A stretch of DNA of 64,000 bases from positions 556,205-620,204 of the forward strand of contig CAWCGQ010000004.1 of the NCBI GenBank assembly GCA_963795125.1, given 5' to 3'. This DNA is from an uncultured Acidimicrobiia bacterium (GTDB lineage: Bacteria > Acidobacteriota > Vicinamibacteria > Vicinamibacterales > UBA2999). This document shows, piece by piece, positions 1-30,701 of this stretch. Made by a program: the position numbers and the translations under genes. Under the pieces are notes generated by a model, which saw nothing but the letters and a program-made list of their open reading frames with translations, had not been told where the DNA came from and did not search any database. How positions within the stretch are numbered: the first letter of the stretch is position 1; each line of letters begins with the position of its first letter.

Positions 1-2041
1 CAGGCCGCCGCCGATGCGCGCGGTGTAGATGTTCTGGTTGCGCGAGCCCGCGTTGCCGGCGTGGCAGACGGCGACCTGCTTCGACGGATCGAACAGGCTC
101 TGCCCGGTTCCCTCCCACGATGGTCGGTGGTGTGTAATTCGCCCAATTGCCGTCGAGCGGCGCGCGCACGTCGCGGTTGTCGGTCCAGGTGGCGTGGAAA
201 ACGGGAAAGGCCGCCGACGCCGACGGTGTTGTACACCCATCGCCCACCTGCTGCCGGCACGAACGCGGGCGCGGCGGTCAGGTCGATGTAGTCGCCGATG
301 AACGGAACCGTGCCCAGCTTGAACATCGGCAGGTTGGGCGGGTTGATCTGCAGCTGTTCGAGCGCCGTCAGCGCTGTTGCGATAGCCCATGAGGTAGTCG
401 GACACCTTGACCGACGGCGCGAACACCGGCGAGGGGCCGGCCGTGGCGAGCGACGCCCGGATGTCGATGGTCTGACGCTTGCCGTTGGTCGAGATCTGGT
501 CGGTGACGTATTTGCCGAACACCTGCGCGGCTGTCTCGCGCAGGTCGTAATAGACCAGCATCAGCTTGCCGCCCGCGAAGGCCAGGCTTGGCATCAACTG
601 ATGCCCGAATGCCTCGTTCGCCGCAATCACCGGCGCAGTGAACGACACCGCGTCGAGTGGTGGTGGCCACCAGGATGCGTGAGTCGCCGTCGATCGTGCT
701 CGGGCGCTGCTCGGCGTAGCCGCGCTCGGCCCACGCCACGTAGACCCGGCTGCTGCCGTCGATCGCCATCGCCGGATAGGCGTTGGTCCGGAAGCTGTAC
801 GGCGAGGTGCCCTGATCGGGATTCGAGATCGCCGCCACCACCGTGCGGTTGCGCCCGCTTCTTGCGGTGTTCGAAGATATTCTCGAGCGCCGCCGACGGC
901 GATCCGGTTCCCGCAAACCCCCGCGCCTCGGCCCGGGCTTCGAGAACGCGCCGCCGCCGACCGGCAAGCGGGCCAGCATGACGGCGTCGGCGGTGGGCTG
1001 AGCGGGACTCGCAAAACGGCGCCACGCGACGAAGACGTCGCCGTCATGGGGATCAATCGCGAGGACCGCGCCTTGATTGAGCGCGTCTGCGGTGCTGGTG
1101 ACGCGCATCGGCGCGCTCCAGGTCGCGCCGCAGTCAAGCGAGCGCTTGAGGAAGATTTCGGCGCGAAGGGTGTCGAGCCGTCGCCCGTGATCGACGTGTA
1201 CGCCACATACACCGCGCCACCAGGCACGCGGATCAGCCCGTCGTCGTGCACGTTGGTCGAGTTGCCCCGCCCGTTCTTCTTGTGCCCATTGCGCTTGACC
1301 TTTGCGCCACCGGGCGTGCCGCCGACGACGCACATGACGGGGTTGTTGCTGCGGGGGATATCCACGGCCATCCAGGGTTTGTCGAGAAACGCCGCGCCGG
1401 TGGAGGTCGCCACCATGCTGGTCCCCAGGTACGAAACGGTGTCGCCGTTCTCCTTGCCGTTGGTGTCGATGAAGCGCGTCAGGAAAATGCCGCTCTTGCC
1501 GCCCTCACCGCGATCGAAGACGAGACCGCTGTAGTAGAAGAGACCGTGCGTGCCGGCGCGCACCACCGGGTCGGCCCCGGCCTGATAGCCCTTGAGTGGC
1601 GACGCCAGTACCGGCGGCCGATTGGTCCTGCGGGTACCCGGGCAGGAGCGTGCTGGACCATCGCTGTCCGCCGTCGAACGACTTGTAGACGCTGATCCAC
1701 GCGTCGCCGGTCTCCGCATCGTCGGGCAGGCCCGGAAGATCGACCGTTCGGTAGTCATTGCTGCCACCGAGCAGATGCAACGGGTTCCTCGTGGAAGCGG
1801 CCATCGTCGATTCGTTCTGCCGCTGCAGAAACGGGTCGCCATCAGGCCAGCCGGTGCCGGCCACCATGTTCACGTTTCTGCCCGGAATCTGTGCGAGCAG
1901 CGTAGCTCCCGCAGAAAGGGCGAGGCCGACGAACAGGCCGGAGGCGAGCCGAGTGAAGCTGCAAAGACGAGGGGTCGAGCCGGGCATTGGTGCTCCTGCG
2001 AGTGGGACTATCCTTGTTCTTGCTGGTGCCGTCCTCGACAT
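1..2041 (-). CDS. BNR/sialidase-like (exo-alpha-sialidase family) secreted protein; 3' end off-window; reading frame broken several times as assembled
   Basis: ORF 1505-2041 has a signal-like N-terminus, then SNDYRTVDLPG and SVYKSFDGGQRW. The protein continues in other minus frames (AAFLDKPWMAVD around 1350-1390; SLDCGATWSAP in ORF 368-1333). Confidence 0.55.
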
Positions 2042-2178
2042 GACTTAGTGCGTCACCAAGGACAACGGGCACATAGCCTACCAGCATTCAGTCGGTTTCG
2101 ACTAGCCTCCGACGCGCCCTCCCAAACCGAGACGCGTCGACAGCCATCACCACCGAGGGAAGCTCGAGTAACAAGCGC

Positions 2179-3156
2179 GTGGGACAGCCAAACAGCCTCA
2201 CCTCCAAGGATCGGCTAAAGTCAGGCCTGGACAGGCTTTACGTGGAATTCAACGCCGATCGCGCGGTCGCCGATCCTGTGTGGATGGCGCGGCGCTTCGA
2301 CCGCGACGACGATCGCGAAGTCGCCGCGTTTATCGCCGCCGCGCTCGCGTTCGGACGCGTCCAGAGCGTGCTCAACTCGGTGGACGGAATGCTGCAGGTG
2401 ATGGGCGCGTCACCCGCGGCGTTCGTGCGCGATTTCCAGCCGGCGCGCGATCGGCACTGTTTCAAGCACCTCGTGCATCGCTGGACGAGCGGCGCCGACT
2501 TCGCCGCGCTCGTCTGGATACTGCACCAGATGATCGAGCACCGCGGATCGATTGAAGGCTTCTTCACAGAAGGCCTCACGCCTGACGCGATCGATGTCGG
2601 CGAGGCGCTTCAATCTTTCTCCACCCGCGCGCTCGCCCTCGACGTGAAGGCGATCTACGGCTCCAAACGTCCGAAGCCCGGCGTCGCGTACTTCTTCTCG
2701 CGACCCTCGTCCGGCGGCGCCTGCAAGCGCCTCAACCTGTTCCTGCGCTGGATGGTCCGCGAAGATCAGGTCGATCTTGGCGTGTGGAAGAACGTCCGGC
2801 CGGGACAACTGATCGTCCCGCTCGATACCCACGTGATTCGTGTCGGGCGCTGCCTGCGCCTCACGAAGCTGAAGAGCCCCGGCTGGCGAATGGCGGCCGA
2901 CATTACCGCGTCCCTGCGGCAGATCGATCCCGCCGATCCGGTCAGGTTCGACTTCTCGATTTGCCACCTCGGCATGATGAACGCGTGCGGGTTCGGGAAG
3001 AAAATCGGTGACGCGAATTGCCCGCTCAAAGGTGCCTGTTACCCGGGAGCGGGCGTCGGCGCCGAAGCTAGTCCTGGCGCAGCGCCACGACAGGATCGAC
3101 TGAGGCAGCGCGGCGCGCCGGCACGAACGCCGCCATCAGGGCGACGAGAACCATAG
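2179..3156 (+). CDS. TIGR02757/DUF2400 family protein
   Basis: Single 325-aa ORF with family-typical blocks (FIAAALAFGRV, LVHRW, FFSRPSSGGACKRLNLFLRWMVR, VPLDTHV, FDFSICHLG). The last ~40 aa overlap the convergent permease gene, so the true stop may be earlier (possible late frameshift). Confidence 0.65.
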   Translation: MGQPNSLTSKDRLKSGLDRLYVEFNADRAVADPVWMARRFDRDDDREVAAFIAAALAFGRVQSVLNSVDGMLQVMGASPAAFVRDFQPARDRHCFKHLVHRWTSGADFAALVWILHQMIEHRGSIEGFFTEGLTPDAIDVGEALQSFSTRALALDVKAIYGSKRPKPGVAYFFSRPSSGGACKRLNLFLRWMVREDQVDLGVWKNVRPGQLIVPLDTHVIRVGRCLRLTKLKSPGWRMAADITASLRQIDPADPVRFDFSICHLGMMNACGFGKKIGDANCPLKGACYPGAGVGAEASPGAAPRQDRLRQRGAPARTPPSGRREP

Positions 3157-5719
3157 CCGCCGCGGCGACGCCAATCGGCAGCACGCCGTCGACCTGAACA
3201 TTCGCGAGCCAAGCCGCCCGCCATGCGCCCGCCGGCGACCGCGATCGGGATGCCGACGAGCAGCCCGGCGACGACGATGCCGGCCGCGTTCTTCACGACC
3301 ATCGCGATCACTTGTCCGGGCGTCGCGCCGAGCGCCATGCGGACGCCGATCTCGTTGGTGCGTCGCGACACCGTATAGGCGAGCAACCCGTAGAGACCGA
3401 GCCCGGCGAGGGCGGCGCCGAGAATGCCGAACATGGTCGAGAGCATCGCGACCATGCGTTCCGGGATCACCGCCGCGTCAACCTGATCGTCGAGCGTCGT
3501 CATCGACGCCACCGCTCCTGCGGTGAAGACCTCGTCGGCCAGTCGCCGGACGTCGCCGGCCACCGCCGTCGGAGCGATCGCGGTGCGGATCGAAAAGCGA
3601 TGGGCGAACATCCGCGATTCCTGGAGCGCGTTCAGATAGACGGTGCGTGGCGCCTGGTCGTGCAGCGTCAGGTACTTCGCATCGGCGACCACGCCGACGA
3701 TCTCAAAGGGGCCGCTTTGCCCTTCAAGCGTGAAGCGGTGCCCGATCGCCGAGCCGTCGCCGAAATAGTAGGTGGCCGCCGCCTGGTTGATGATCGCGAC
3801 GCGTCGCCGTCCCTCGTCTTCGAACGAAAAATCACGTCCCGCGATCAGCGCGGTGCCGAAGGTGTCGAAATATTTCGGCGCGACCCAGTTCAGCAGCGTG
3901 CGGAAGCGATCGGCGGCTCCTGAACGCCGACCATGTCGACGAAGCGGGAGGCGCCGGCGCCGTGAATTGGCGTGACCGCACTCACCGTGGCCGAACGGAC
4001 ATTGGGGATGGCGGCGATCCTGGCCAGCAGGTCCTGATACGGCCGCGACAACTGCTCGGGCGTGTAGCCCGTACGTGACGCATCGATCGTCATCAGCAGG
4101 ACCGAGCTCCGATCGAAGCCCAGGCCGACGTTGCGAAGATTGGACAGGTGATTGACGAACAGCGCCGCCGCGGTCAACAGCACCATCGAGATCGACACCT
4201 GCGCGACGATCAGGCCATGGCCGAACAGCCGCTTCGATCGTGTCTCCCCCGCGGTGCCGGTCTCGCGCAGCGATACGCCCGGCGCGCTACTGAACGCGTG
4301 CCACGCCGGCGCGAGCCCGAACATCACGCCGGTCAACCACCGCAACCACCGCCGTGAACAGCAGCGCGTCGGTGTCGAGTCGCGCATCCAATTGGACCGG
4401 TCCGACGAGACCAACCATGCCGCGGCCGGAGGTGAGAATGCCAACCAGCGCCTTCACGCCCAGGTAGGCGATGCCGATGCCGAGCAGTCCTCCCGCCGCC
4501 GCCAGCAGCAGCGATTCGCTGAGCATCTGCCGGACCAGCCGCCATCGCGACGCGCCAACGGATACCCGGACCGCCATCTCGCGGCGCCTCGCCGACGAGC
4601 GCGCAAGCAGGACGCCGGCGACATTCGTGCACGCCACCAGCAGCAACAGGGCGACGATCGCCAGGAGGGTCCACAGCGGCTTGCCGTAGCGGTCGCGCAT
4701 CAGCGCGAACCCGGCGCGGGCGGGCTCGAGATCGATGGTCAGCTTCTGGAGATTCGGTGACCGCCTGGAGAGCAGCTCGACGCGGAAGCGATCGAGGACC
4801 CGCATTTCGGCGCGCGCCTGGTCGAGGGTGACGGCTGGTTTCAGCCGCGCCATCAGGCCGAGGGGCGGCGCACCCTCACCGCGCCGTTCGGCCGCGAGCG
4901 GGAGCCACAGTTCGGGACGAAAGCCGACCAGGAGACCTCGATACGACTTCGGTGTCACACCGACAATCGTCGCCGGCACGCCGTTGACGACCAGTGGCTG
5001 CCCGAGAACCGACGGGCTGAGGTTGAAGCGCTCCTGCCACATCCGCCAGCTGACGACCACCACCGCGGCGGCGCCGGGTTGATGGTCTTCAGGGCCGATC
5101 AGCCTGCCGATCGCCGCGTCGACGCCGAGCGCCGGGAAGAAATTCTCGGTGACGTACTCGCCGCTCACATCCTTCACGTCGCCCACCTCGAAGCGCGCGG
5201 GAGACATCGCGAACAGCATCGGTGAAGACGTGGTTGTTATCGCGATAGTGCTCGAAGACGCGTCCAGTTGTAGCCGTTGGTGCGCGGCTCGCCCGGGAAC
5301 TGGCTCAGCACTTCCACCAGGCGATCGGGTTCGTGCACCGGCAGCGGTCGCAACACCAGCATGTTCACGAGGCTGAAGATCGCGGTGTTGGCGCCAATGC
5401 CGAGGCCGAGCGACACCACCGCGACGATCGAGAACACCGGACTCCGCCGCATCATGCGCATGGCGATACGGCCGTCGCCCACCATGTCCTCGAGCCACGG
5501 CAAGCCGCGTTGGTCGCGCACCGCGTCCATGGCTTGCGCGATGCCGCCCGCTTCGATGCGCGCCCGGCGCATCGCCTCCTCGGGGGAGTGGCCCTGGCGC
5601 CGCGCCTCCTCGGCGAGCAGGTCGAGATGCAGGCGGAGTTCCTCTTCGAGGTCGGCGTCGGGTCGCCTGCCGCTGATCGTGCCCCACAGCCGCCGGATCC
5701 ATTCGTGGAGGATCGCCAT
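3068..5719 (-). CDS. ADOP-family duplicated FtsX/MacB-type ABC permease; multiple frame changes as assembled
   Basis: N-terminus MAILHEWIRRLWGTISGRRPDADLEEEL...RRSPVFSIVAVVSLGLGIGANTAIF (ORF 5237-5719). Middle FtsX block is in ORF 4287-5780 and ORF 3890-4444. C-terminal FtsX block YGLLAYTVSRRTNEIGVRMALGA is in ORF 3039-3692. Terminal ...ASVDPVVALRQD* is read in another frame, with the stop at 3068. Confidence 0.8.
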
Positions 5720-5728
5720 GTCTGCTTC

Positions 5729-6076
5729 CTAGGTCTGGTCGTCGAGGACCGTTCGCATGATCGAGGTCATCCGATCCCACTCGGCCTTCTCGGTTTCGAG
5801 CCGGCGCTTGCCGGCCGCGGTCAGCGCATAGAAGCGCGCCTTGCGGTTGCTGTCGGTCTGGCCCCAGTCACCGCGCAGCAGGCCGCGCTGTTCGAGGCGC
5901 ATCAGCGCGGGGTAGAGCGTGCCCATGTTGAGCTGCAGGGCGCCCTTCGACACCTGCTCCAGGCGGGCGGCGATGGCATAGCCGTGCTGCGGCCCGAGCG
6001 ACGCGAGCGTCTGCAGCACCATCAGGTCGAGCGTGCCCTGCAGGACCCCGGCTTTGTCCGCGTCTTTATTAGACAT
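5729..6076 (-). CDS. PadR family transcriptional regulator
   Basis: LQGTLDLMVLQTLASLGPQHGYAIAARLEQVSKGALQLNMGTLYPALMRLEQRGLL is a typical PadR winged helix. The gene lies 9 nt upstream of the permease. The ATG at 6076 is preferred over the ORF-track start at 6097. Confidence 0.85.
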   Translation of the reverse strand: MSNKDADKAGVLQGTLDLMVLQTLASLGPQHGYAIAARLEQVSKGALQLNMGTLYPALMRLEQRGLLRGDWGQTDSNRKARFYALTAAGKRRLETEKAEWDRMTSIMRTVLDDQT

Positions 6077-6144
6077 CCGAATGGAGAATGCCACCACTCC
6101 ATTAGATTGTCAAATGCAGCAGTCGGCGCGGGCCCGGCCCCCTG

Positions 6145-7356
6145 CTACGGCGTCGGCACGCGCGTCTCGCGCGGGTGGAACGCGACCACCAGCAGCAGCG
6201 CCGCGGCCAGCGCGAGGACGGCCGGCGCGAGGAACAGTCGCGAGAAATCGACCGCGCCATCCGGCGGTGCGGAACACATCGCCCAGCCATCCCCACAGCA
6301 GGCTGCCGGCGAACGGACCGACGCCGAGGATCACCAGGTTGAACAGTCCCTGCGCGCTGGCGCGCGCGTCGCGCGGGCAGCGCTCGTCGACGAAGATGTA
6401 GACCGCCGCGAAGAAGAACGCGTAGCACATGCCGTGGACGAGGTTGATCGCGACCATCAGCCACAGCGGATCGCCGATCGCGAACACGAAGAAGCGCGCG
6501 GCATGCGCGAGGATGCCGATGGTCATGGTCCAGCGCCAGCCCAGTTCGCGCCAGCGCCCAGCCGAGCAGCGGCCATCGACGCGATCTCGGCGACCTGGCC
6601 GACGCTCATCGCCGCCATGATCAGGTTCTCCGCGAGGCCGGCCTGCTGCAGGAACGGGCTGGTCCACTGGAAGTAGCCCTGGTGCACGAGCGCATCCATC
6701 GTCGTGGCGATGAACAGCACCAGCATCACCGGATCGCGCAGCAGCGCGATCGCCTTCATCGGCGCGCTGGCGCCGGGCTCGCGCGGCGCCGGCGGCGTGT
6801 GCGGCAGCGTCAGCGAGAAGGCGGCCAGCGCGATCGAGGCGATGCCGGCGACGGTGAAGATGCTCGACAGCGCGGCGTGCAGGTCGGGACCGGTCTTGCC
6901 GGCGAGGATGAACACGAACGGCCAGCTCGCGGCGATCCAGCCGATGGTGCCCCACAGCCGGATCTTGCCGAACTCGGTCTGCGCGTTCGAGATGTGATGA
7001 AAGCAGATCGCGTTGGTCAGCGACATCGTCGGCATGTAGGCCAGCTGATAGATCAGCATGACCATCAGGAACGACCAGAAGGTGGTCTGGAAGGCGAGGG
7101 CGAACATCGCGGCGCCGCCGACCAGGTGCAGCACGGCGAGCAGCTTCTCGGTCGACAGCACGCGGTCGGCGATCTGCCCGCCGAAGTAGAGGCCGAACAC
7201 GCAGGCGATCGCCTGGGTCGCGAACACCCAGCCGATCTGCGCGCCGGTGAAGCCGAGGACGTCGCCAAGATAGAGGGCGAGCAGCGGCAGCCACGATCCC
7301 CAGATCAGATATTCCAGGAACATCATCACGGACAGGCGCGTCGAGGCGGCTGTCAT
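6145..7356 (-). CDS. MFS transporter, nucleoside:H+ symporter-like family; at least 2 frame changes
   Basis: ORF 6523-7356 reads MMFLEYLIWGSWLPLLALYLG...KIRLWGTIGWIAASWPF. The C-terminal half is in the ORF 6110-7294 frame (LWLMVAINLVHGMCYAFFFAAVYIFVDE). The last ~45 aa (DGAVDFSRLFLAPAVLALAAALLLVVAFHP...) are in a third frame and end at 6145. Confidence 0.7.
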
Positions 7357-7383
7357 GATGGAGGTGAACTATAGTTCACATCC

Positions 7384-8613
7384 ATGGCAGGCAGGTTGGG
7401 TGTCGGCTTTATCGGCAGCGGATTCATCACGCGCTTTCACATCCGCTCGTGGGAGGCGGTCCGCGACGCGGACGTCCGCGGCATTTACAGTCCGACGCGG
7501 GCCAACGCCGAAGACGCGGCGGCCCTGGCGCGCTCGCTGCACGTCGGCGACGCGCGGGCCTTCGACTCGATCGAGGCGATGGTCGCGGACGAGTCGATCG
7601 ACTGCGTCTGGTTGTGCGGGCCGAACTTCGCGCGCGTCCAGAACATGGAGCGCATCGTCGCCGCGATCAAGAAGGGCGCGACGCTCAAGGCGATCGCCTG
7701 CGAGAAGCCGCTCGGCCGCAACGCCGCCGAAGCGGCGCGCATGGTCGAACTGGTCGAAGCAGGCCGGCCTGCTGCACGGCTATCTCGAAAACCAGTTGTT
7801 CATGCCGAGCCTCGAGCGCGGCAAGCAGATCGTGTGGGCGAGAGGCGCCGCGTTCGCCGGCCGCCCGTATCTCGCGCGCGCGGCCGAAGAGCACGGCGGC
7901 CCGCACATGCCGTGGTTCTGGCAGGGCGACCTGCAGGGCGGCGGCGTGCTGAACGACATGATGTGCCACAGCCTCGAGGTGGGCCGCTACCTGCTGACCA
8001 AGCCCGGCGCGCCGCGCGACAGCATTCGCCCGCTGAAGGTGTCGGCGCAGATCGCCTCGCTGAAGTGGTCGCGTCCCGAGTACACCGCGCTGCTGCGCGG
8101 CACCATGACCGACAAGGTCGATTACGGCAAGCATCCCGCCGAAGACTGGGCGCGCGCGACCGTGACCTACGTCGACGAGGCCGGCACGCCGCTGATCGTC
8201 GAGGCGACGACGTCGTGGAGTTTCGTGGGCGCGGGCTTGCGTTTGTCGATGGAGCTGCTCGGTCCCGAATACTCGATGTCGATCAGCACGCTCGACGGCG
8301 GCACCAAGGTGTTCTTCTCGCGCCGCTTGCAGGACAGCAGCAGAGCGGCGAGGACCTGCTCGAGAAGCAGAACGCCGAGCAGGGCCTGATGCCGATCGTC
8401 GGCAACGAAGCGAGCGAGTACGGCTACGAGAACGAGAACCGCGCGTTCGCGCGGGCGTTTCTTGACGGCATCCAACCGGAGCTCGACTTTCACGCCGGCC
8501 GCGAGGTCACCGAGCTGCTGATGGCGTGTTACATGAGCGCAGAGGAAGAGCGGGTGATCGAATGGAAACCGGCAAACCTGCAGTCGTACGTGCCGCCGCC
8601 GGCCAGGCGTTAA
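7384..8613 (+). CDS. Gfo/Idh/MocA family oxidoreductase; 2 frame changes (near 7760 and 8340)
   Basis: Rossmann start [14 protein letters not shown], then ACEKPLGRN. The middle part is in the frame of ORF 7355-8389 ([13 protein letters not shown]...[15 protein letters not shown]). The C-terminus returns to the first frame ([16 protein letters not shown]). Confidence 0.8.
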
Positions 8614-9460: not shown

Positions 9461-9468
9461 TCCTGACC

Positions 9469-10194: not shown

Positions 10195-10196
10195 CA

Positions 10197-10248
10197 CGGC
10201 CGACAGCCCGACGGCCCGACAGCCTGACAGGCCTACGCCTACGGCCTG
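10197..10248. repeat. Short-word array in a convergent spacer (CCGACAGCC / CCTACGCC words)
   Basis: acggCCGACAGCCCGACGGCCCGACAGCCTGACAGGCCTACGCCTACGGCCTG fills the whole gap between the stops at 10194 and 10249. Confidence 0.6.
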
Positions 10249-11779: not shown

Positions 11780-11837
11780 GGTGGCCTTTCGCCGGTGGCC
11801 GGATGCTACTACAATCCTGCTCGTACCCGACCCCCAC

Positions 11838-14176: not shown

Positions 14177-14181
14177 CGCGT

Positions 14182-17807: not shown

Positions 17808-17831
17808 CCGCGCAATTCACCGGCCTCAACC

Positions 17832-19551
17832 ATGGCCAAACGCATCCTCGCTGCCGCAACCCTTCTTCTGACTGGCGCGATCCTGTCCGCCGCGCAGGCG
17901 CCGCAACCGACCGCGGCGCCGACCGCGAAGCCCGAAGAAGGCATCCCGGTCACCGATGCGACGGTCCTCAAAGCCTGCGGGAGCTGCCATAAGCCCGACG
18001 ACAAGGGGCAGATGTCGCGCATCTCCTTCCAGCGCAACACGCCCGAGGGCTGGCAGCTGACCGTGCAGCGCATGGCCTCGCTGAACGGCCTGAACATCGA
18101 GCCGGAGACGGCGCGCCAGGTCGTGAAGTACCTGTCGAACCATCTCGGGCTCGCGCCGGAGGAGGCCAGGCCGGCCGCCTGGGAGGCCGAGCGCCGCCTG
18201 ATCGACTTCAAGTACACCGCCAGCGCCGACACCGAGTCGACCTGCATCAAGTGCCATTCGATGGGCCGCGTCATGTCGCAGCGCCGCACCAAGACCGAGT
18301 GGGAACTGCTGATCGCGATGCATCGCGGGTGGTATCCGCTGGTCGACAACCAGGCGTTTCGCCGCAGCGGTCCGCCGCCGCCCGCTCCACCGTCTGACGG
18401 CCGCCCGGCGGACAACCGTCATCCGGTCGAGAAGGCGCTCGCCCACCTCGCCACGACCTATCCGCTGAAGACACCCGAGTGGACGGCGTGGTCCGCCAAC
18501 ATGCGGCCGGCGCGGCTCGACGGCACGTGGGCGCTGAGCGGCTGGGAGCTGGGCAAGGGCGCGATCTACGGCCGCGTCACGATCACCGCCGATCCGTCCT
18601 CGCCCGAGGAGTTCACGACGTCGACGACCTATCGCGTCGCCCGCACCGGCGAGACGGTCACGCGCACCGGCCGTTCGATCGTCTATACCGGCTTCCAGTG
18701 GCGCGGCCGCTCGTCGACGCTCGGCCGCCGATTCGACGATGCGCGAGGTGATGATGGTCGATCGCGACTGGCGCAGCATGGACGGCCGCTGGTTCACCGG
18801 CGGCTACGACGAGCTCGGCATCGACGTGAAGCTCGAGCGCGTCGCCGGCGAAACGCGCGTGCTCGGCACCGACCGCACGGCGCTCAAGCAGGGCGCCGCC
18901 GGCCAGCCGCTCAAGATCTACGGCGTCAACCTCGGCACGCTGCAGCCGCGCGACATCGATCTCGGTCCCGGCATCACCGTCACGCGCATCGTCGAGAGCA
19001 CGCCGGAGATGGTGACGGTCACGGTGGATGTGGCCGCTGCCGCCGCGCCGGGCTCGCGCGACCTGTTCGTCGCCGGCGCCTCGCGGCCAGAAGGCGCTCG
19101 CGGTGTTCGACAAGATCGACGGCATCAAGGTCAAGCCCGACTGGGCGATGGCCCGGGTCGGCGGCGACACCTTCCCGAAGATGCTGGCGCAGTTCGAGGC
19201 CTGGGCCTACAGCAACGGCGCCGACGGCAAGCCGGATTCTCCCGACGACATCGACCTCGGGATGGTCGACGCGGCGTGGAGCCTGGAGGAATACGCCGCC
19301 ATCTACAACGACGACGACATCAAGTTCGTCGGGCACGCTGAACGCGGCGACCGGCCGCTTCACGCCGGCGATCGACGGCCCCAATCCCAAGCGCGTCCGG
19401 CGCGCGCAACAACATCGGCGATGTCTGGGTGGTGGCGACCTATCCCGGCGAGGCGGTGGCCGGCAAGCCGGCGCCGACCCATCGCGCCCGCGCGCACCTG
19501 CTGGTCACCGTGCCGCTCTACATGCGGTTCGATCCGTCGAGGGCGCAATGA
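17832..19551 (+). CDS. qhpA: Quinohemoprotein amine dehydrogenase alpha subunit (dihaem cytochrome c + beta-barrel domains); at least 3 frame changes
   Basis: Signal peptide, two CXXCH motifs (CGSCH, CIKCH), SFQRNTPEGWQLTVQRM and TKTEWELLIAMHRGWYP in ORF 17832-19835. It continues in ORFs 18739-19341 and 19028-20146. The stop overlaps the qhpD ATG (ATGA at 19548). Confidence 0.8.
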
Positions 19552-21008
19552 GCACGGTCGGCCTGCGCGAGTTTCATTCGTTCGAGGCGGCCGGCCGCCG
19601 CTTCCTCTACCTGGTGCCGAGCGCCGCGGTGTTCGCGCTCGACGACTGCTCGAGCGCGATTCTCGATTCGCTGTCGTCGGGCCCGCGCGCCGGCGGACGA
19701 CATCGCCCGCGCGCTGTCGCCGCGCTTCGACGCCGCGCGACGGTCGCCGACACGCTCGCCGAGCTGCAGCGCGTCCGCGCGCTGGCCGATACCGGCGGTG
19801 CCGGCGCCGCCGCTCGCCGAAGATCATCCCGCTGAAGCCGGTGCCGCTGCAGACGCTGGTGGTCAACGTCACCAACCAGTGCAACCTGGCCTGCACCTAC
19901 TGCTACGAGTACGGCGAGGACAAGATCGTCGATACCGAGAACGGCAAGCAGCCGAAGTTCATGACCGAGGAGACGGCGCGCGAGAGCGTCGAGTTCGCGC
20001 TGCGCGAGTCGCGCGACAACCCGCACGCGCACATCACGTTCTTCGGCGGCGAGACGCTGATGAACTTCCCGGTGCTGCAAGTCGACCATTGCCTACGCGC
20101 GGCGGCGCGCCGCCGAGGTCGGCAAGGCAGATCGACTTCAGCCTGACGACCAACGCGACGCTGCTGCGGCCCGACGTCATCGAGTTCCTGGCCGACGAGC
20201 GCGTCGGCGTGACCATCTCGATCGACGGCCCCGAGGAGATGCAGGACAAGTTCCGCGTCTTCAACAACGGCGCCGGCAGCTACGCGATGGCGGCGCCGAA
20301 GATCAAGGCGCTGCTGGCGCGGCACCGCTCGCGGCCGATCGGCGCGCGCGTCACGCTGACCAGGCAGACGCTCGACGTCCGGAAGATCTATCGCCACCTC
20401 ACCGACGAGCTCGGGTTCTGGGAAGTCGGCTTCGCGCCGGTCACGACCGCGCCCGGCCGCGACTACGCGATCGTCGGACGGCGGCTTCGATCACCTGCTG
20501 GCGCAGTTCCGCGACCTGGCCGGCGACTATCTCGAGGCGTCGCTGCAGAATCGCCATCACGGCTTCTCGAACGTCCGCGAGACCCTGCAGGAGATCCATC
20601 ACGGTCACGCCAAGGCCTATCCCTGCGGCGCCGGCATCGGCCTGATGGGCGTCTCGACCGACGGCGAGGTCGCGCTCTGCCATCGCTTCGCCGGCTCCGA
20701 CGAGCACAACTTCGGCAACGTGCGCGACGGCGTGTCGTTCGAGAAGCAGCAGGCGTTCCTGGAGTCGCACCACATCGCGAACAAGACCGACTGCAGCACC
20801 TGCTGGGCGCGGCCGATCTGCGCCGGCGGCTGCTATCACGAGGCCCACACCCGCTACGGCTCGACCAACCGTCCCAACCTGCACTACTGCGACTGGATTC
20901 GCGGCTGGACGCACACCTGCCTGGAGATCTACGGCGAGATTGCCGAACGCAATCCCGGGTTTCCTGCGGCAGTTCGATGACGAAGAGGTTCCGGAGAAGG
21001 TCTCATGA
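19548..21008 (+). CDS. qhpD: Radical SAM/SPASM peptide maturase QhpD; several frame changes
   Basis: VVNVTNQCNLACTYCYEYG (CX3CX2C), FFGGETLMNF, FSLTTNATLL, and the SPASM block CSTCWARPICAGGCYHEA (ORF 20645-20980). The stop overlaps the qhpC ATG (ATGA at 21005). Confidence 0.85.
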
Positions 21009-21366
21009 AGCATCTGACCACCGATCAATCGCAAGGCCGCGCGCGTCGCGTCGGTGACCGCGCCGACGGCCGCCAGGGACGTCGTCGCGCTGCAGGGCCC
21101 GCCGCAGCAACCCGAGCCGCCGCACATCCCGAACGGCTGCTCGCTGGTGTTCTGCGCCCGGCTGGGAAGCCGACCGCAACGGCGGCACCGCCGGGCTGTG
21201 CCAGCCGGTCGAGCGCGACCTGTTCGACTGCCACATGGGCTGCTTCTGGCCGGCGCAGGTGCCGGACCAGTTGAACCATGCGCCGGACTGGACCGCGAAG
21301 TGCGCGGCCGCGCAGAAGGACTGGCGCAAGATCGACCTGATCTTCCCGGACGAGAAGAAGAAATGA
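21005..21366 (+). CDS. qhpC: QHNDH gamma-subunit precursor (crosslinked CTQ peptide) QhpC; 2 frame changes in 360 nt
   Basis: MKHLTTDQSQ... leader, then ...PNGCSLVF / PGWEADRNGGTAGLCQPVERDLFDCHMGCFWPAQVPDQLNHAPDWTAKCAAAQKDWRKIDLIFPDEKKK*. The last frame is not in the ORF track because it lacks a long Met-initiated ORF. Confidence 0.8.
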
Positions 21367-22452
21367 CGCGGCTGCTGTTGATGCTGCTGGCGCTGGCGAG
21401 CGTCGGCCTCGGCGCGCAGAAGCCGGCGCGCTGCCGTCGCCGTCGGCGGCAATCACCTGATGTACATCGGCACCTATGCCGGGACGATCCAGATCTTCGA
21501 CGAGGCCACCGAGAAGATGGTCGGCGACATCAAGCTGCAGACCGGCATTCCGCGATCGCTGACCCTGTCGCAGTCGCGCTCGAAGTTCTACGTGCTCGAT
21601 TCGACGCTGGAGAAGATCGAGATCGTCGACATCCCGACGCGCGCGTCGCTGTCGTCGTTCACGCTGAGCGAAGGCAACAAGCAGGTCCGGATCCGCGGCC
21701 TTCAGGTCGATCCGCTCGAGCGCTTCCTGATCCTGCTGACGCGCTCGGCCACCAAGCTGATCGATCGCTGGGAGATCGGCGACATCTCGCTGCAGTTCTA
21801 CGACCTGGCGCAGAAGAAGGTCACCCGCACGATTCCGTGGCCGAAAGGCGAGGAGCGCGAGAACGTCAACATCCGCTTCTCCCCGGACGGCAAGCTGCTG
21901 TATTTCTTCGGCGACGATGTCCTGATTCTCGAGACCACGAATTTCACCGAGGTCGACACCTGGCCGCTCAGCCGTCCGCTCGAAGCCGGCCTCGGCCGCG
22001 TCAACTTCGGCTCGGTCGACGACTTCAATGAGGACCCGGGCTTCCTGACCGGCCTGTTCACCACCCAGGATCCGATCCAGAACCGTCGCATCATGAGCCT
22101 CGGCCGCGTCAACCTGGCGGCGAAGACGATCGATCTCACGCCGATCGGCCCGGCCGAAGGCGTCAGCTTCGCGCTGGCGCCGGATCGCAAGCGCGGCTAC
22201 GGCCTGATGCAGCAGATTGGCCGCTACGAGTTCTGGACGTTCGACGTCGCCCAGAAGAAGCTGCACGGCCGCACCGTCTTCGAAGGCCGCCCGCGCATGG
22301 CGTTGCGCGTGTCGTCGAACGGCAAGCTGCTGTACATCTTCCAGGCCGGAGCGACCATCGACGTCTACGACGCCGCGTCCTACAAGCTGCTGCGCACCAT
22401 CGAGATGACCGCGGATCAGACCACCAACCTGTTCATCCTGCCGAGGAAGTAG
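21363..22452 (+). CDS. qhpB: QHNDH beta subunit (7-bladed beta-propeller) QhpB; one frame change near 21430
   Basis: Signal peptide MTRLLLMLLALASVGLGAQ in the ATGA-overlapping frame. The mature part is the intact ORF 21460-22452 (YIGTYAGTIQIFDEAT...FSPDGKLLYFFG...SSNGKLLYIFQAG). Confidence 0.75.
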
Positions 22453-22546
22453 ATCCGCTAGGCGAGGCCGGTGAATCGGGGGGCCACGCTATACCAGGCA
22501 GGCATCAGGTCGATCGGCATGGTGCGGCGACCAGACCATCGAATAT

Positions 22547-24423
22547 GTGACAATCGACGGCCGGAGCATGTCCGCTTCGGCCGCGCTCGAGCGCGCGGGC
22601 ACCGCAGCGTCCAGCCATGCCGTCCACGCACCGATGAACCGACAGGTCTTCAGCTACCTCGTGCCGTACTGGCGGCGCCTCGATCCTGGTCCTGGCGATC
22701 AGCCTGATCAGCACCGCGACGACGCTCGTCATCCCGTACCTCTCGAAAGATCTGATCGACACCGCGCTGGTCGGCCGCGATCTCGGTGCCTTGCGGCGCA
22801 TCGTCTTCTGGTTCATCGCGCTCGGCGTCCTCGGCTTCATCCTCAACGTGACCAGCGGCCTGCGCTACACGCGCGTGTCGGCGGAGATCCTGTTCGACAT
22901 GCGGCTGTCGCTGTATGCGCACCTGCAGCGGCTGTCGCCGCGCTTCTACGCGCGCACGCGGCTCGGCGACATCGTCTCGCGGCTCAACAACGACATCAGC
23001 GAGATCCAGCGCGTCGCCGCGGAGGCCGCGCTGGCCTGGGTCGGCAACGTGCTGTTTCTGGTCGGCAGCCTGGTGATGATGATCTGGCTCGACTGGCGGC
23101 TGTCGCTGATCGCGCTGGCGCCGCTGCCGATCAGCCTGGTCGCGCTGGCGTTCTATCGCCGCCGGCTCGAGGGCCGGGTCGCCGACCTGCGGCAGCGCAG
23201 CGCCGACATCGGCAGCTTCCTGATCGAGACGCTGCAGGCGGCCTCGCTGGTGGTCGCGTCGAACGCGCAGGCGCGCGAGCAGGATCGGTTTCGCGGGCTG
23301 AACGGCGCGTTCATCGAGTCGTTGATGCGGATGCAGCGCGTGACCTACTTCGCCGGCGGCCTGCCCGGCACGGTGCTGTCGATCGGCTCGGCGATCGCGT
23401 TCTTCTACGGCGGTCTGCGCGTGATCGACGGTACGCTGACGCTCGGCACGATGGGCGCGTTTCTCGCCTACCAGATGCGAGTGTTCGCGCCGGCGCAGGC
23501 GTTGATGGGCCTGTTTGCGAGCCTGACCACCGCCAAGGTGTCGTGGTCGCGCGTGCTGCGAGATCCTCGACGCGCCGATCGATGTCGTCGAGCGCCCGGA
23601 CCGCGAGGGCGATGAGCGAGCCGCGCGGCGAGCTGAGGTTCGAAGCGGTGACGCTCGGCACCGATCGCAGTCGCGCGTGCTGGACGCAGGTGTCGTTCAC
23701 CGCGCGGCCGGGACAGACGGTGGCGCTGGTCGGCGGCAGCGGCGTCGGCAAGTCGACGATCGCCTACCTGGCGACGCGTCTGCTCGATCCCGATGCCGGC
23801 GTCGTGCGGCTCGACGGCCACGATCTGCGCGACCTGACGCTTGCAGAGCGTGCGCCGGCACATCGTGCTGGTCGAGCAGGAGCCGACGCTGCTCCACGCA
23901 CTCGATCGAGGAGAACATTCGCTACGTGCGGCCGGACGCGACCGGCGACGAGGTCAGGCGGGCCGCGGAGGCCGCCGGGCATCGCGGCGTTCATCGAGGC
24001 ACTGCCGCAGGGCTACGCGACCGTCGCCGGTGAGCGAGGCCTGGCGGTGTCGGCCGGCGAGCGCCAGCGCATCGCGCTGGCGCGCGCGTTTCTCGCCGAT
24101 CCCGCGGTGCTGGTGATGGACGAGCCGACCGCGGCGCTCGATGCGATCGCGCAGCGGCAGGTGATCGACGGCTCGCAGGCGGTGATGCGCGGCCGCACCA
24201 TCGTGCTGATCACGCATCGCCGCGAGGTGGCGATGGCGGCCGATCATGTCGTGGTCCTCGACGGCGCGCGCGTCGTCGATGCGGGAGCCGCCGCGCCTGC
24301 TCGCGGACGCGGTCGGCGGCGTTTGCGCGGTTGTTCGAGATCGACCTGTCCGACCGTCCGCGCAGCCCGCGGCGCAGGTGGAAGGGCCGGCGCGAAGGCG
24401 ATCGCCCGGCCGGCGCGTCATGA
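22547..24423 (+). CDS. qhpF: ABC transporter, fused permease/ATPase (QhpF-like exporter); several frame changes
   Basis: Six-TM exporter domain in ORF 22791-23615 (SRLNNDISEIQ...). The ATPase has Walker A (GGSGVGKST, read in the 22547-24478 frame), EENIRYV, the signature LSAGERQRIALARA, and Walker B VLVMDEPTAALD. Start is uncertain (GTG 22547, ATG 22568 or ATG 22634). Confidence 0.75.
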
Positions 24424-25137
24424 CGCGCGCAGGAAGCGCGGACGCGCACAACGTCAGGGTCGCGGTCGATCGCCGTGATCGACAGCGGCGTGCACGCGAA
24501 TCATCCGCATGTCGGTGGCGTTGCCGGTGGCATCGGCATCGACGACCATGGCGCCGCGCATGACGATTACGTCGATCGTCTCGGCCACGGCACCGCGGTG
24601 ACCGCGGCGATTCGCGAGAAGGCTCCGGACGCGGAGATCTTCGCGATCAAGGTGTTCGATCGCGAACTGGCCGCGACCGGCCAGGCGCTGGTCGCCGCGT
24701 GCGAGTACGCGCTGTCGACTCGGAACCGCAGCTCGTCAACCTGAGTCTTGGCACACCGAACGTCGATTACGAGGCCGCGCTCATGGACGTCGTCGGCCGT
24801 CTGCAGCAGACAGCGGCGCGATCGTGATCGCGGCGGGTGAGCAGGACGGCGTGCGCTGGCTGCCGGGATCGTTGCCGGTGTCTGGGCGGTGCGCTCGACT
24901 GGACCGGTGCCGCGAGACAGCTGCCGGATCGATCGGCTGAATCGGCAGGGCGCGGCGTTTCGCGCCACCGGTTTTCCGCGGCCGATTCCCGGCGTGCCGC
25001 CCGCGCGCAACTTGAAGGGCCTCAGCTTCGCGGTGGCCAACGTCACCGGAACGGTGGCGCGATTGCTCGCGGAGGACGACGACGGTGATGCCGTCACCGT
25101 GCTGACGCGGGCGTTCGAGCGCGGCCGCTTCGGCTAG
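24420..25137 (+). CDS. qhpE: Small subtilisin-like (S8) serine peptidase, QhpE-like leader peptidase; at least 3 frame changes
   Basis: Catalytic-triad blocks AVIDSGVHANHPHV (Asp), GHGTAVTAAI (His) and GLSFAVANVTG (Ser) are spread over ORFs 24475-24744 and 24889-25137 plus one more frame. The ATG overlaps the qhpF stop (ATGA at 24420). Confidence 0.65.
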
Positions 25138-27597
25138 TCGCGGCGCAGCGCCAGCATCGGATCGAGACGGGTGGCTCGCCGCGCCGGCAGAATGCTGGCC
25201 GCGACGGCGACCACCGCCAGCAGCAGCGTGATGCCGCCGATCGTGATCGGATCGCGTCCGCTCGATCTGCACGAGCAGGTTGGTGCTCGAGAACAGCGCG
25301 CCGACCCCGAGGGCACCGGCTACACCAATCGTCAGTCCGATCGCGAGCTGGATGAACGATCGCCGCAGGAACAGCCAGGCTACCTGGTTGCCCTGCGCGC
25401 CGAGCGCCATGCGCAGGCCAATCTCCTGCGTGCGCTGCGAGACCGCGTAGGCGGTGACCGCGTAGAGGCCGACCGCCGACAGCGTCAGCGCGATCAACGC
25501 GAAGATCGTGAACATGCTGCCGAAGATGCGGAATGGCCATCGCGCCTGTTCGAGCGCCGCGTCCAGCGTGCGAATGCCGAACAACGGCAGGTCGGGATCG
25601 ATCGCGCGCACTTCCTCGCGCAGGATCGGCGTCATCAGGTTGGGGTCGCCGGCGCTGCGCACCGAGCAGGTTCATGAAGCCGCGCGGATCGGTTCGGAAG
25701 GGCAGGTAGGCGATTGGATCGGGATCGGGCAGTTGGAAATCGCGCTGCCGCAGGTTCGGCACGATGCCGACGATGGTCGCGGTGATGCGAGACCGGAATG
25801 CCGCCCTGCGGCGCCGCGCCGCCCTGCAGGTCGATCGCCAGCGTGATGCGGCGGCCGATCGGATCGTCGCCGGGGAAGTGCAGTGCCGCGAACCGCTGGT
25901 TGACGATCACGCTTTCGCGTCCGGTCATCCCGTCTTCGTCGGTCAGATCGCGGCCCCGTTGCAGCGACAGCCCAACGGTCTTGAAGTAGCGCGGATCGAT
26001 CGTCAGCATCGTCACGTTCGGCGCCTGCTGTCCCTGATCGAGCGGCCGGCCGTCGATCGTCAGCTGGCGCAGAAACCCGCCCTGCATCGGCACGTTGCTG
26101 GTGATGGTGACCGCCTCGATCTTCGGATTCGATCGGAGTCGTTCCTCGAGCCGCTCGTAGAACGCCAGCCGCTGCTCGACCGACGGGTACTTCCGCTCCG
26201 GCAACTGCCAGCGCCATGGTGAGCAACCGTGAGGTGTCGATGCCGAGGTCGAGACTGTAGAGCGTCAGGAAGTTGCGCATCATGAAGCCGGCGCCTGCGA
26301 GCAGCACCACGGTGAGCGTCAGTTCGGCGACCATCAGCGCGCCGGTCCAGCGGCTGGCGCGCGCGCCGGCGGAACCGCTGCGGCCGCCCTCCTTCAGCAC
26401 CTCGTTGACGTCGGTCTTCGAGATGTGCAGCGCCGGCGCCAGTCCGAAGACGATGCCGGTGGCGAGGCAGACGAGGGCGAAGAAGCCGATCACCGTGCCG
26501 TCCATCGTGAACTGAATCCAGTACGGGCCGGCCGACATCCTGCGTCGCGCGGTCGAACAGGCGGATGCCGATCGCGGCGATGCCGAGCCCGCCGATGCCG
26601 CTCAGCACCGCCAGCATCACGCTTTCGATCAGCAGCTGGCGAATCACCCGCCAGCGCGACGCGCCGAGCGCCACGCGCACTGAGATTTCCCGCGCGCGGT
26701 TGGTGGCCCGCGACAGCAGCAGGTTGGCGACGTTCGCGCAGGCGATCAGCAGGACGAACGCCACCGCGCCCATCAGCGACAGGAACACGGTGCGGATCGG
26801 CCCGCCGTTCTGACTCTCGTTGAACGTTTGGACGCGTGCCTGAATGTCCTTGTTGGTGTCCGGATTCTCCGATTCGAGCGTCCTCGAAATGTTGACGAGT
26901 TCGCTTTGCGCCTGCGCGCGCGTGACGCCGGGCGCGAGATGGCCGAAGGTCTGCAGCTGCCTGGAGTGTCGCGGTTGGGTTTCGAGATTCGGAATCTGCG
27001 ACAGCGGCAGCCACAGGTCGGTGTTGAAGGGGAACTTGAAACCCTCGGGCATGACGCCGATCACGGTGGCCGGGATATCGTTGACGCGAATGGTCCGGCC
27101 GATCACGGCTGGATTGCTGCCGTAGCGGTTCTGAAACATGCCGTGGCCGATGATCACCACCGCCGCCGCGCCGCGGCGGTCGTCGTCGGCGGCAAAATTG
27201 CGCCCGAGCACCGGGGTGGTTCCGAGGATGGTCAGCCCGTTGGCCGAGATGTGCGAGCCGTTGAAGCGCTCCGGCGGCTGGCCTTCGTCGCTGACGTTGG
27301 CGACGTCGCCGTCGTAGGCCCCGAAGCTTTCGAAGGTGCGGGTGCGTCCTTCCAGTCGCGATAGTCCAGGAACGACACGCCCCGGGCGCGGTTACGCACC
27401 CGATCGAACGAATCGACCGCCAGCGTGCGATCCGGATCGGCGATCGGCAGGCCGCGGATCAACACCGCGTTCACGAACGTGAACACCGTGGCGTTGACGC
27501 CAATCCCCATGGCCAGCGCGATGGCCGCGACCACGGTGAACCACCGGTCTTTCACCAGCAGGCGCGCCGCGAAGCGAATGTCTTCCCAAAGACCCAT
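25134..27597 (-). CDS. ADOP-family duplicated FtsX/MacB-type ABC permease (second copy, no adjacent PadR); multiple frame changes
   Basis: [41 protein letters not shown] (ORF 27232-27621). First FtsX block [32 protein letters not shown] (ORF 26060-27211). Second block [22 protein letters not shown] (ORF 24781-25662). The C-terminus reads ...[18 protein letters not shown]. Confidence 0.8.
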
Positions 27598-27731
27598 GCG
27601 TGGTGACCTCTGTGGCGCCACCGGCCGTGGGGCCGGCGAAGCAGGCGGGTGGACCTAGCTTCCCTTACGCAGCAGAGGTTGCCGGGGTTCCACGATTCCC
27701 CGAAACGCGGCCCAAGGGTTACTATCAGCCG

Positions 27732-28241: not shown

Positions 28242-28249
28242 ACGCACCC

Positions 28250-29236: not shown

Positions 29237-29251
29237 ATTTGGGGTCAGGTC

Positions 29252-29839: not shown

Positions 29840-30034
29840 ACGCGGGGTCCCTCCAATCGCAATGCCGTCGGCGATCGTCCACAAATCGCGCGGCAACGAC
29901 GCGGCCCGGTCACGCCGTTGTCGGATTCTGCGAAGCCGGCACCGGCAGGAGATCGCAGGAACTGCAACGGTGCAGGCGGCCCAGGTGCCTCCAGTGATGT
30001 TGAAAAGTGGGACCTGACCCCAGATACTAGCGGC

Positions 30035-30694: not shown

Positions 30695-30701
30695 TGACGC
30701 C

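Follow-up and report, generated by a model that had tools for sequence, protein, structure and literature searches.

Frame-broken genes across the left 27 kb of a Vicinamibacterales contig, a qhp cluster among them, very probably reflect a consensus artefact

The window analysed here, a 64,000-nucleotide stretch of a 779,563-bp contig from an uncultured soil bacterium of the Vicinamibacterales, falls into a left tract in which most genes can be read only by changing frame and a right tract in which they are uninterrupted. Of the two explanations offered in an earlier note on this DNA, our comparisons support an artefact of consensus quality and strongly disfavour the other, genuine pseudogenes of very recent origin lying in one block. 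An assembly or consensus artefact of one sort or another is, with a probability of about 0.93, the source of the frame breaks; judging from sequence comparison, it is almost certain that the organism itself has intact genes in the left tract, the whole qhp (quinohaemoprotein amine dehydrogenase) cluster included. The specific mechanism is probably the collapse of close strains with a doubling of alleles at polymorphic sites. The source's own gene calls in this region are fragmentary, and the features were delineated as follows.

1..27346, no strand: noisy tract, extra bases of 1 nt (rarely 2 nt) at about 3.3 per kb; it continues past the left window edge, 27,346 nt being its minimum extent
1..2100, minus: coding region with no Pfam match, GC3 phase alternating
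2179..3156, plus: DUF2400/TIGR02757 gene, intact (PF09674, 2.3e-68; single-frame matches)
3071..5700, minus: ADOP/MacB-FtsX permease 2, at least 5 frame switches (-1/-2/-3/-1/-3/-1)
5729..6097, minus: PadR regulator, intact
6159..7373, minus: MFS transporter, 3 extra bases (6268, 6545, 6568)
7384..8613, plus: Gfo/Idh/MocA oxidoreductase, shifts at ~7760 (+1) and ~8334 (+2/+5)
8562..9421, plus: AP_endonuc_2 / sugar-phosphate-isomerase-like gene, 2 shifts (~8835, 9232)
9445..10194, plus: DUF1080 (3-keto-disaccharide hydrolase-like) gene, 4 events (9818, 9859, 9868, 10150)
10250..11780, minus: second Gfo/Idh/MocA gene, 7 single extra bases (10425, 10491, 10914, 11035, 11233, 11424, 11581)
11838..13540, plus: GMC oxidoreductase, 2 events (13013, 13525), with a clean stretch of 1.43 kb inside
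13541..14170, plus: gluconate 2-dehydrogenase subunit-3-like gene, 2 events (13740, 13993)
14240..16413, plus: CBM9/DUF5916 protein gene, 5 events (14265, 14309, 15579, 16068, 16252), the last three backed by 14/14 references
16440..17811, plus: FAD-dependent, tryptophan-halogenase-like gene, 8-10 events including 1-nt deletions at 16991 and 17661
17832..19548, plus: qhpA (alpha subunit), 4 extra bases (18719, 19089, 19334, 19396)
19548..21010, plus: qhpD (radical SAM/SPASM maturase), 9 extra bases
21010..21390, plus: qhpC (gamma subunit), 2 extra bases (21018, 21153)
21390..22452, plus: qhpB (beta-propeller subunit), a net +1 cluster at 21414-21443 in the N-terminal region, remainder clean
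22547..24350, plus: ABC exporter (qhpF-like), 8-11 events
24350..25134, plus: subtilisin-like S8 peptidase (qhpE-like), 3-4 events (24712 +2, 24806 +2, 24874 -1)
25135..27598, minus: ADOP/MacB-FtsX permease 1, start ATG at 27598, 6 events (25263, 25664, 25786, 26206, 26525, 27345)
27346..28250, no strand: noisy-to-clean changeover interval, with its upper limit taken from the 95% bound for an event density of 3.3 per kb
27732..64000, no strand: clean tract, GNAT and M28 peptidase through beta-lactamase/NamZ fusion genes uninterrupted

Seventy frame-shifting indels were curated at 6.2-27.35 kb (positions 6268 to 27345), corresponding to 3.3 per kb with a Poisson-like spacing. At least five further shifts occur at 3.1-5.7 kb and, with ADOP permease 2 counted in, the total is about 75-85. 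To the right, comparison of 27.7-39.5 kb with up to 11 references revealed no frame-shifting indel, the 9 blocks aligned in this range contained no window-private non-3n indel, and the segment at 40-64 kb, with its long ORFs and steady GC3 phase, gave no sign of frame breaks. At the left-tract rate, the probability of finding no event in the 36.65 kb right of the boundary is e^-122. The asymmetry between frame-broken and unbroken genes claimed in the earlier note is confirmed by these figures, the alignments with relatives up to 39.5 kb having disclosed no similar indel density right of 27.6 kb. Composition points the same way: the GC3 phase switches repeatedly within genes left of about 27.4 kb and is steady on the right, and stop-to-stop ORFs consistent with GC3 have a median of 126 aa (maximum 356 aa, coverage 33%) on the left against 351 aa (maximum 1146 aa, coverage 76%) on the right. 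When intact proteins of relatives were used as queries, most left genes were matched as 2-7 HSPs in differing frames; four gave one HSP each, in three of the four by being forced across shifts that were placed by DNA comparison. On the right, all nine genes tested gave one full-length HSP.

At the DNA level, with up to 14 independent relatives, identical non-3n gaps recurred at the same window positions. The individual examples given in the earlier note held up. The PadR and TIGR02757 genes do read through, and the exit and return of frame in the first Gfo/Idh/MocA gene correspond to the shifts at ~7760 and ~8334; the nominal 409-aa ORF of that gene is open throughout, yet about 570 nt of it are out of frame. 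Both switches described for qhpC were located, the close pair described in the DUF1080 gene is at 9859 and 9868 with two more at 9818 and 10150, and the switch reported near 27350 in the ADOP permease is the last lesion of the window, a 1-nt deletion at 27345/6.

The lesions are nearly all insertions. In the left blocks, 55 window-private non-3n insertions (49 of 1 nt, 5 of 2 nt and 1 of 5 nt) were counted against 4 deletions, each of 1 nt, and clean references showed essentially no private non-3n indels in the same comparison. Every lesion is private to the window; none recurs in the independent relatives compared, up to 14 in number. The extra base differed from both of its neighbours in 40/49 cases; the run holding it had a length of 1 in those 40, of 2 in 6/49 and of 3 in 3/49, and no lesion among the 49 events examined lay in a homopolymer run of 4 or more. 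The indels thus do not lie in homopolymers, and homopolymer-type error, as from Nanopore R9, 454 or Ion Torrent, was ruled out as a candidate.

The extra bases are instead associated with polymorphic sites. In 24 of 36 clean cases (67%), the extra base was an allele found in relatives at the adjacent column, polymorphism being judged here from relatives at 75-90% identity and not from the strains of the sample itself. Random insertions simulated in the right blocks and realigned in the same way matched an allele in 18% of cases (19/105; Fisher p = 1.5e-7), and those simulated in the left blocks in 16.8% (n=202; Fisher p = 4e-9). The column adjoining the extra base was variable in 92% of cases, compared to 58-60% in the random controls. 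Allele doubling would be expected to favour synonymous third positions as partner sites; among 14 partner columns, a small sample, 8 were third, 6 second and none first positions. The description of the damage as generic single-base indel noise therefore does not hold: the events are nearly all insertions, outside homopolymers, at polymorphic sites and with the alternative allele.

Apart from the extra bases, the left genes are in good order. Once these were removed by projecting the window genes on the coordinates of the closest relative (L081), the seven genes from qhpA to ADOP permease 1 contained 0 internal stops in 3,110 codons, conserved full-length ORFs being restored without other damage. 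Corrected left genes are 82-96% identical to those of L081 in amino acids, and right-hand genes 75-90%. Where three relatives agree, the window has a substitution of its own at 3.8% of the sites on the left against 5.3% of those on the right, so that the left half has no excess of substitutions and its branch is, if anything, shorter. The view that preserved motifs and start/stop overlaps speak against old decay is borne out by these results.

The signature is not confined to this contig. Three other assemblies of the clade, L084, L085 and L167 (ENA ERZ25039511, ERZ25039494 and ERZ25039469), show the same signature of +1 insertions at other, non-homologous positions. Of their private +1 insertions, 70-80% are unlike both neighbours, and an allele is matched in 6/9, 11/16 and 12/15 cases, respectively. 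The three records all bear 'contig_N' names, and it is from this naming and from the neighbourhood of the accessions only that they appear to have been produced the same way. Short-read-style assemblies of the same clade (L081, on a k141-named contig, L119 and L090) are clean, as is L086 save for three non-3n insertions of 5 nt, 4 nt and 7 nt in the Gfo/Idh/MocA stretch, the last two called against the window alone.

The changeover can be placed only within 27,346 to about 28,250, an interval wider than the divergent spacer 27598-27731 with which the earlier note had made it coincide; because the event density is only 3.3 per kb, the switch is not assignable to that spacer. No repeat, mobile element, Ns or synteny break was found in the interval 27346-28250. 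Gene order across it is kept in at least five relatives (L081, L082, L001, L002, L096, L088), with a collinearity spanning 18-40 kb, so that the boundary does not mark a biological junction; an island edge, mobile element or rearrangement bounding the block was looked for and none was found. For the same reason, the suggestion that two unrelated assemblies had been mis-joined is unlikely.

Pseudogene accumulation is genuine in reductive genome evolution, as in Mycobacterium leprae and recent endosymbionts, where decay is deletion-biased, includes larger deletions, brings nonsense codons and faster substitution, and extends over the whole genome. The window shares with such genomes many neighbouring genes that are unreadable in one frame, but these other hallmarks are absent from it, and genome decay was rejected as a candidate on that account. 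For the block to consist of real, very young pseudogenes, an insertion-prone episode over about 27 kb would have had to strike 18 genes, the whole qhp cluster among them. The deposited sequence does carry the lesions, and its GC3 signal is as undamaged as its motifs and overlaps, which is how extremely recent events would leave them; this reading is nevertheless most improbable given a spectrum of 55 insertions and 4 deletions, none of the latter large, the lack of any nonsense codon or substitution excess, some 70 events in 21 kb followed by none in the next 36.65 kb across conserved synteny, the alternative alleles at the lesions, and three further assemblies with the same signature at different positions. 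There is, likewise, only a very slim chance that the lesions are real products of an insertion-only process at strain-polymorphic sites that inactivated the 18 genes, for example through faulty processing of mismatched heteroduplexes after import of 27 kb by recombination from a close strain.

Two other kinds of artefact have to be weighed. A low-coverage or unpolished long-read consensus, made from few noisy reads or from a stretch skipped by the polisher and with no role for strain heterogeneity, would account for the abrupt change in quality, the Poisson-like spacing, the third of insertions that lack an allele match and the sister contigs that are noisy across whole loci; genes broken up by indels are also what long-read assembly classically yields when depth is low (PMC9262707). 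It is unlikely, since the observed 67% of allele matches contrasts with the 17-18% or so expected of random insertions (p = 4e-9), and the observed 92% of sites next to a variable column with about 58-60%, and since the 55:4 excess of insertions and the avoidance of homopolymers are unlike the usual residual nanopore errors, which are homopolymer indels (PMC9262707). Alternatively, alleles could have been imported as insertions after assembly, by reference- or homology-guided polishing, by merging of related assemblies or by polishing across samples. Such a step would fit the relatives' alleles in the extra bases, the sharp boundary and a signature common to several assemblies with the same naming style, and at the level of sequence its expectations are indistinguishable from those of strain collapse during polishing. 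We consider it quite improbable: no Ns, repeat or synteny break betrays a join at the boundary, and the one workflow described, a candidate for this contig that was followed in a large Nanopore project on soil MAGs, consisted only of metaFlye and one Medaka round (PMC12313526).

According to the strain-collapse reading, the assembler would have collapsed at least two co-occurring close strains or near-species onto a single path over at least the left 27.35 kb, their reads together making up the consensus there. At some SNP sites the polisher would then have written both alleles side by side instead of one, each doubled site adding one base and hence a +1 frame shift; to the right of 27,346-~28,250, a single haplotype would contribute or the haplotypes would be identical. 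Flye-style contig names and the contig size suggest a long-read platform for the source assembly. The collapse of strains, the polishing step assumed to write both alleles, and the link between the two are inferences from the sequence pattern, and no paper on polishers describing both alleles written in tandem was found. For 12 of the 36 clean insertions the extra base matches no allele of the relatives at hand, and ordinary read errors probably contribute to the total. The four 1-nt deletions and five 2-nt insertions count against allele doubling and need their own explanation.

As far as the published descriptions go, gene-fragmenting indel errors of long reads, measured by IDEEL-type tests, are consensus single-base indels that split otherwise well-conserved genes into several ORFs, depend on coverage and are seen in MAGs (PMC9262707; PMC12007338), near-finished Nanopore-only MAGs needing roughly 40x coverage (PMC9262707). 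These features recur in the window, but the classic form, in those descriptions, is homopolymer-linked with many deletions, whereas here insertions prevail 55:4, 40/49 extra bases are unlike both neighbours, the sites are polymorphic with an alternative allele and the damage is sharply bounded. Strain-collapsed contigs from metaFlye or other strain-oblivious assembly, as outlined for Strainberry (PMC8302730) and Strainy (bioRxiv 10.1101/2023.01.31.526521), likewise merge reads of close strains into one path, locally and up to where strains diverge structurally or become identical; collapse by Flye into consensus contigs is indicated for strains of ~98.7% identity (PMC8302730). Within those outlines collapsed regions are SNV-rich, and tandem allele doubling with +1 frameshifts is not described.

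The qhp cluster of the window is, on comparison of its sequence with relatives, an ordinary member of its kind and not a decayed one. It comprises qhpA, qhpD, qhpC and qhpB in this order together with the exporter and the subtilisin-like peptidase, and its genes align full length to those of relatives once the frames are followed; the tryptophan-halogenase-like gene just upstream of qhpA is possibly qhpG-like. Gene content and order match the intact cluster of L081, in which Pfam domains are Dehyd-heme_bind/Qn_am_d, Radical_SAM, QH-AmDH_gamma, beta-propeller, ABC_membrane+ABC_tran and Peptidase_S8. Every member in the window carries +1 artefacts and is 82-96% identical to L081 once these are removed.

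The artefacts could also be a faithful marker of two haplotypes on the left and one on the right in the source community, which is more likely than the version with real lesions; if so, a real recombination or sweep boundary would lie near 27.4-28.2 kb. Fragments created by such artefacts are already in public protein collections, as illustrated by the source's own gene call within ADOP permease 2, a 310-aa fragment (P0241), and many Gfo/Idh/MocA relatives on contigs of 50-480 kb measure 139-302 aa compared to a full length of ~407 aa. Collapsed-strain stretches may be recognisable from a finished assembly alone, by +1 insertions that are unlike both their neighbours and carry the alternative allele of a variable site next to them, and the signature might also permit their repair, which would be of some value for the quality control of MAGs. 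In biological terms the result is negative, in that no member of the qhp cluster, none of the sugar-oxidoreductase genes and neither of the two ADOP permeases in this Vicinamibacterales genome should be regarded as a pseudogene; all would best be treated as functional.

The 64 kb window has a G+C content of ~66% and contains no Ns. At such a G+C content, off-frame ORFs remain open over long distances and a list of ORFs alone therefore hides the damage: 7384-8613, though damaged, is listed as a formally open ORF of 409 aa. The features referred to below are as follows.

1-27346, noisy tract with frame-shifting extra bases
3071-5700, minus strand, second ADOP/MacB-FtsX permease
7384-8613, plus strand, Gfo/Idh/MocA gene
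25135-27598, minus strand, ADOP/MacB-FtsX permease ADOP1
27732-64000, clean tract

When G+C was calculated per codon phase in 150-nt bins, the high-GC3 phase was found to jump repeatedly within genes left of ~27.4 kb and to be constant across each gene on the right. The two halves were then compared using stop-to-stop ORFs whose frame fits the GC3 phase.

GC3-consistent ORFs on the two sides of the window
Left side: median 126 aa; maximum 356 aa; 33% of the sequence covered
Right side: median 351 aa; maximum 1146 aa; 76% of the sequence covered

In the segment 1-2.1 kb, a Pfam search gave no match; in a comparison with ORFs of L084, a homologous contig, high-GC off-frame ORFs cross-match, both sequences being noisy.

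The genomes nearest to the window are MAGs of Vicinamibacterales (Acidobacteriota). Two of their contigs, L001 and L002, show ~75% protein identity to the window and are collinear with it from 18 to 40 kb, spanning the proposed boundary. A nearer relative, L081 (84-86% DNA identity), is an ENA contig whose k141 name is that of a short-read assembler; the identical sequence is present as a JGI contig (L082/L119). In L081 the region is intact and carries qhpA, qhpD, qhpC and qhpB of the quinohaemoprotein amine dehydrogenase (qhp) cluster, the ABC exporter, the S8 peptidase, the ADOP permease, the GNAT gene and the M28 peptidase. For 6.2-18 kb, the contigs L086, L090, L088, L096-L098 and others served as references.

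In a frameshift-aware comparison with intact proteins of the relatives, most left genes are matched in 2-7 pieces lying in different frames, and the good pieces are stop-free. Single HSPs were obtained for qhpB, S8, DUF1080 and the Gfo/Idh/MocA gene, the last being a mis-hit to a paralog. On the right, all nine genes tested gave one full-length piece each. At the DNA level, clusters of gaps that are not a multiple of 3 fell at the same window coordinates with any reference, an agreement that reaches 14 of 14 references at best. Multiple alignments then served to count the indels that occur in one sequence only and whose length is not divisible by 3. The left blocks contain 55 such insertions in the window (49 with a length of 1 nt, five with 2 nt and one with 5 nt) versus 4 deletions, all of 1 nt; none was found in nine right-hand blocks reaching 39.5 kb, and the references have essentially zero. 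The abrupt left/right asymmetry described in an earlier note, made from the sequence alone, is thus borne out, all of its individual examples of broken frames were recovered, and the PadR and DUF2400 (TIGR02757) genes that it had set apart as readable are intact. The curated list comprises 70 events between 6268 and 27345, or 3.32 per kb, with a spacing indistinguishable from Poisson (coefficient of variation 1.06, largest gap 1432 nt). At this density, an event-free stretch of 36.65 kb, as follows here, has a probability of e^-122. The second ADOP permease (3.1-5.7 kb) shows at least 5 frame switches, and its inclusion gives a total of ~75-85 events. Programmed frameshifting or recoding was dismissed, because the ~70 events are spaced at random and affect 18 unrelated genes, which lie on both strands.

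The last event lies at 27345 and, at the 95% level, the tract extends no further than 28,247, which places its end between 27,346 and ~28,250. As the end is placed only within this interval, its coincidence with the spacer 27598-27731 is possible but not demonstrable. Gene order across the boundary is identical in at least five relatives, and neither repeats nor other features were detected in a search of the junction. In the divergent ADOP1/GNAT spacer (27599-27731), the window has 16-35 nt more than each of the five aligned relatives, among which the spacer length varies.

The placement of indels in homopolymers was raised in the earlier note. Of 49 extra bases, 40 are unlike both of their neighbours and none lies within a run of four or more, which led us to reject ordinary homopolymer noise. 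In window positions 17985-27350, runs of at least 4 bases occur at 1.39 per kb, versus 3.0-3.6 per kb in the corresponding stretch of L081, L001 and L002. This ~2.5-fold deficit in the noisy tract is partly due to gene content because a left/right difference is present in the relatives too; on the clean side (27351-38058) the window's run frequency is in line with that of the relatives. For 24 of the 36 clean insertions, the added base occurs among the relatives at the adjacent column, where the window's own aligned base differs. As controls, random bases were added in silico (3.5 per kb) and subjected to the same alignment and calling procedure.

Match of inserted bases to alleles of relatives at the adjacent column
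Observed, window: allele match 67% (24/36); adjacent column variable 92%
Control, clean right blocks of the window: allele match 18% (19/105), Fisher p = 1.5e-7; adjacent column variable 60%
Control, clean reference within left blocks: allele match 16.8% (n=202), p = 4e-9; adjacent column variable 58%

The pattern looks like the two alleles of one SNP written in tandem. By codon position, 14 partner sites divide into 8 third, 6 second and 0 first positions.

The same signature was found in other contigs. L084, L085 and L167 (from ERZ25039511, ERZ25039494 and ERZ25039469) are 87-90% identical to the window and stem from other assemblies at ENA, in which contigs are named in the style of Flye ('contig_N'). 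Their gene calls are fragmented in the homologous region (L084 1-17177, L085 1-20771, L167 4800-16000), and multi-way alignments revealed private +1 insertions in each of the three, located elsewhere than those of the window. These are mostly unlike both neighbours and match an allele in 6/9 (L084), 11/16 (L085) and 12/15 (L167) cases. The first 4.4 kb of L167 are clean and the remainder is noisy, so that noisy tracts are patchy in this contig too. L086, from a fourth 'contig_N'-type assembly, has three private insertions that are not a multiple of 3 in the Gfo/Idh/MocA stretch, where the gene (10001-10888) is called at 295 aa versus ~407 aa, and is clean elsewhere; local lesions occur even in good contigs of this kind. 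References of short-read style are clean. The window's own gene call P0241, a 310-aa fragment of the 3071-5700 permease, is present at NCBI and ENA on a contig of 779,563 bp, a length usual for soil MAGs assembled from long reads. Further truncated products of frame-broken genes among public proteins are Gfo/Idh/MocA relatives of 139-302 aa (P0124, P0137, P0174, P0222, P0362-P0364) on contigs of 50-480 kb, full-length ones (P0365, P0361) being ~407 aa.

Genuine decay was assessed by projecting the window onto the coordinates of L081, whereby the extra bases drop out. From qhpA to ADOP1, the seven projected genes comprise 3,110 codons with zero internal stops and are 82-96% identical to L081, compared with 75-90% for right-hand genes; the left genes are conserved at least as well as those on the right. 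In a relative-rate check with three relatives, window-private changes at invariant sites amounted to 3.8% on the left versus 5.3% on the right (5.7% and 6.5% for L081 as control), and the window's branch carries no surplus of substitutions in the left half. Pseudogene decay in bacteria is biased towards deletions, and neutral decay reaching 3.3 indels per kb should have been accompanied by several per cent substitutions and many stops. The lesions are not decay.

Of the two explanations offered in the earlier note, a consensus artefact is the best-supported, and a real block of young pseudogenes, for which every test aimed at decay was negative, is highly improbable. We infer that, over the left tract, reads of at least two closely related strains present together were collapsed, and that at some SNPs the polisher retained both alleles, adding one base. 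By our own undocumented reasoning, a likelihood-based polisher could favour 'both bases' if a base missing from a read were cheaper than a mismatch. The tract would end sharply where the second haplotype ceases to contribute or turns identical. Flye is documented as collapsing strains into a single consensus (PMC8302730), and ~40x depth is documented as the requirement for a near-finished Nanopore-only consensus (PMC9262707). One large soil project used metaFlye and one Medaka round (PMC12313526); this contig may belong to it, and the tie of the sister contigs to the Danish soil Nanopore project is a lead only. In a limited literature survey, no description of tandem allele doubling by polishers was found.

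Pure low-coverage or unpolished noise would account for the sharp edge, the Poisson spacing and the 12 of 36 insertions without an allele match. As it leaves the allele association and the excess of insertions unaccounted for, we regard it as an unlikely sole cause; those 12 insertions indicate that some plain noise is probably mixed in. A post-assembly processing step importing alleles of relatives, inseparable from strain collapse without logs, appears more doubtful still. The 'transposase relic' of the earlier note (29252-29882) consists of two minus-strand ORFs (179 and 198 aa) that overlap each other and match only part of an L001 ORF (40%) and, weakly, HTH_23. At roughly the corresponding place, two genes downstream of the M28 peptidase gene, L081 carries a 292-aa Y1_Tnp (RAYT-type) gene. 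The relic looks like a genuine remnant, unconnected with the noisy tract.

Several observations concern the genes themselves. Directly upstream of qhpA, the FAD-dependent gene 16440-17811 resembles a tryptophan halogenase (one fragment matches PF04820), and from its position could be a qhpG-type flavoprotein of the qhp system. The permeases 3071-5700 and 25135-27598 are paralogous (~30-39% identical), the former lying directly downstream of the intact PadR gene on the same strand (the pair spans 3071-6097). From the qhpB stop to the start of the ABC exporter alignment (22453-22633) there are ~180 nt versus ~30 nt in L081 and ~60 nt in L001; possible upstream starts of the exporter are 22547 (GTG) and 22569 (ATG).

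The methodological value of the finding is modest: it provides a signature, readable from sequence alone, of one specific type of consensus failure, from which truncated proteins have already been seeded in public databases. Its biological interest is low. The frame breaks are real in the deposited sequence and are no feature of the organism; with the extra bases ignored, the qhp cluster is an ordinary, intact-looking member of its kind.
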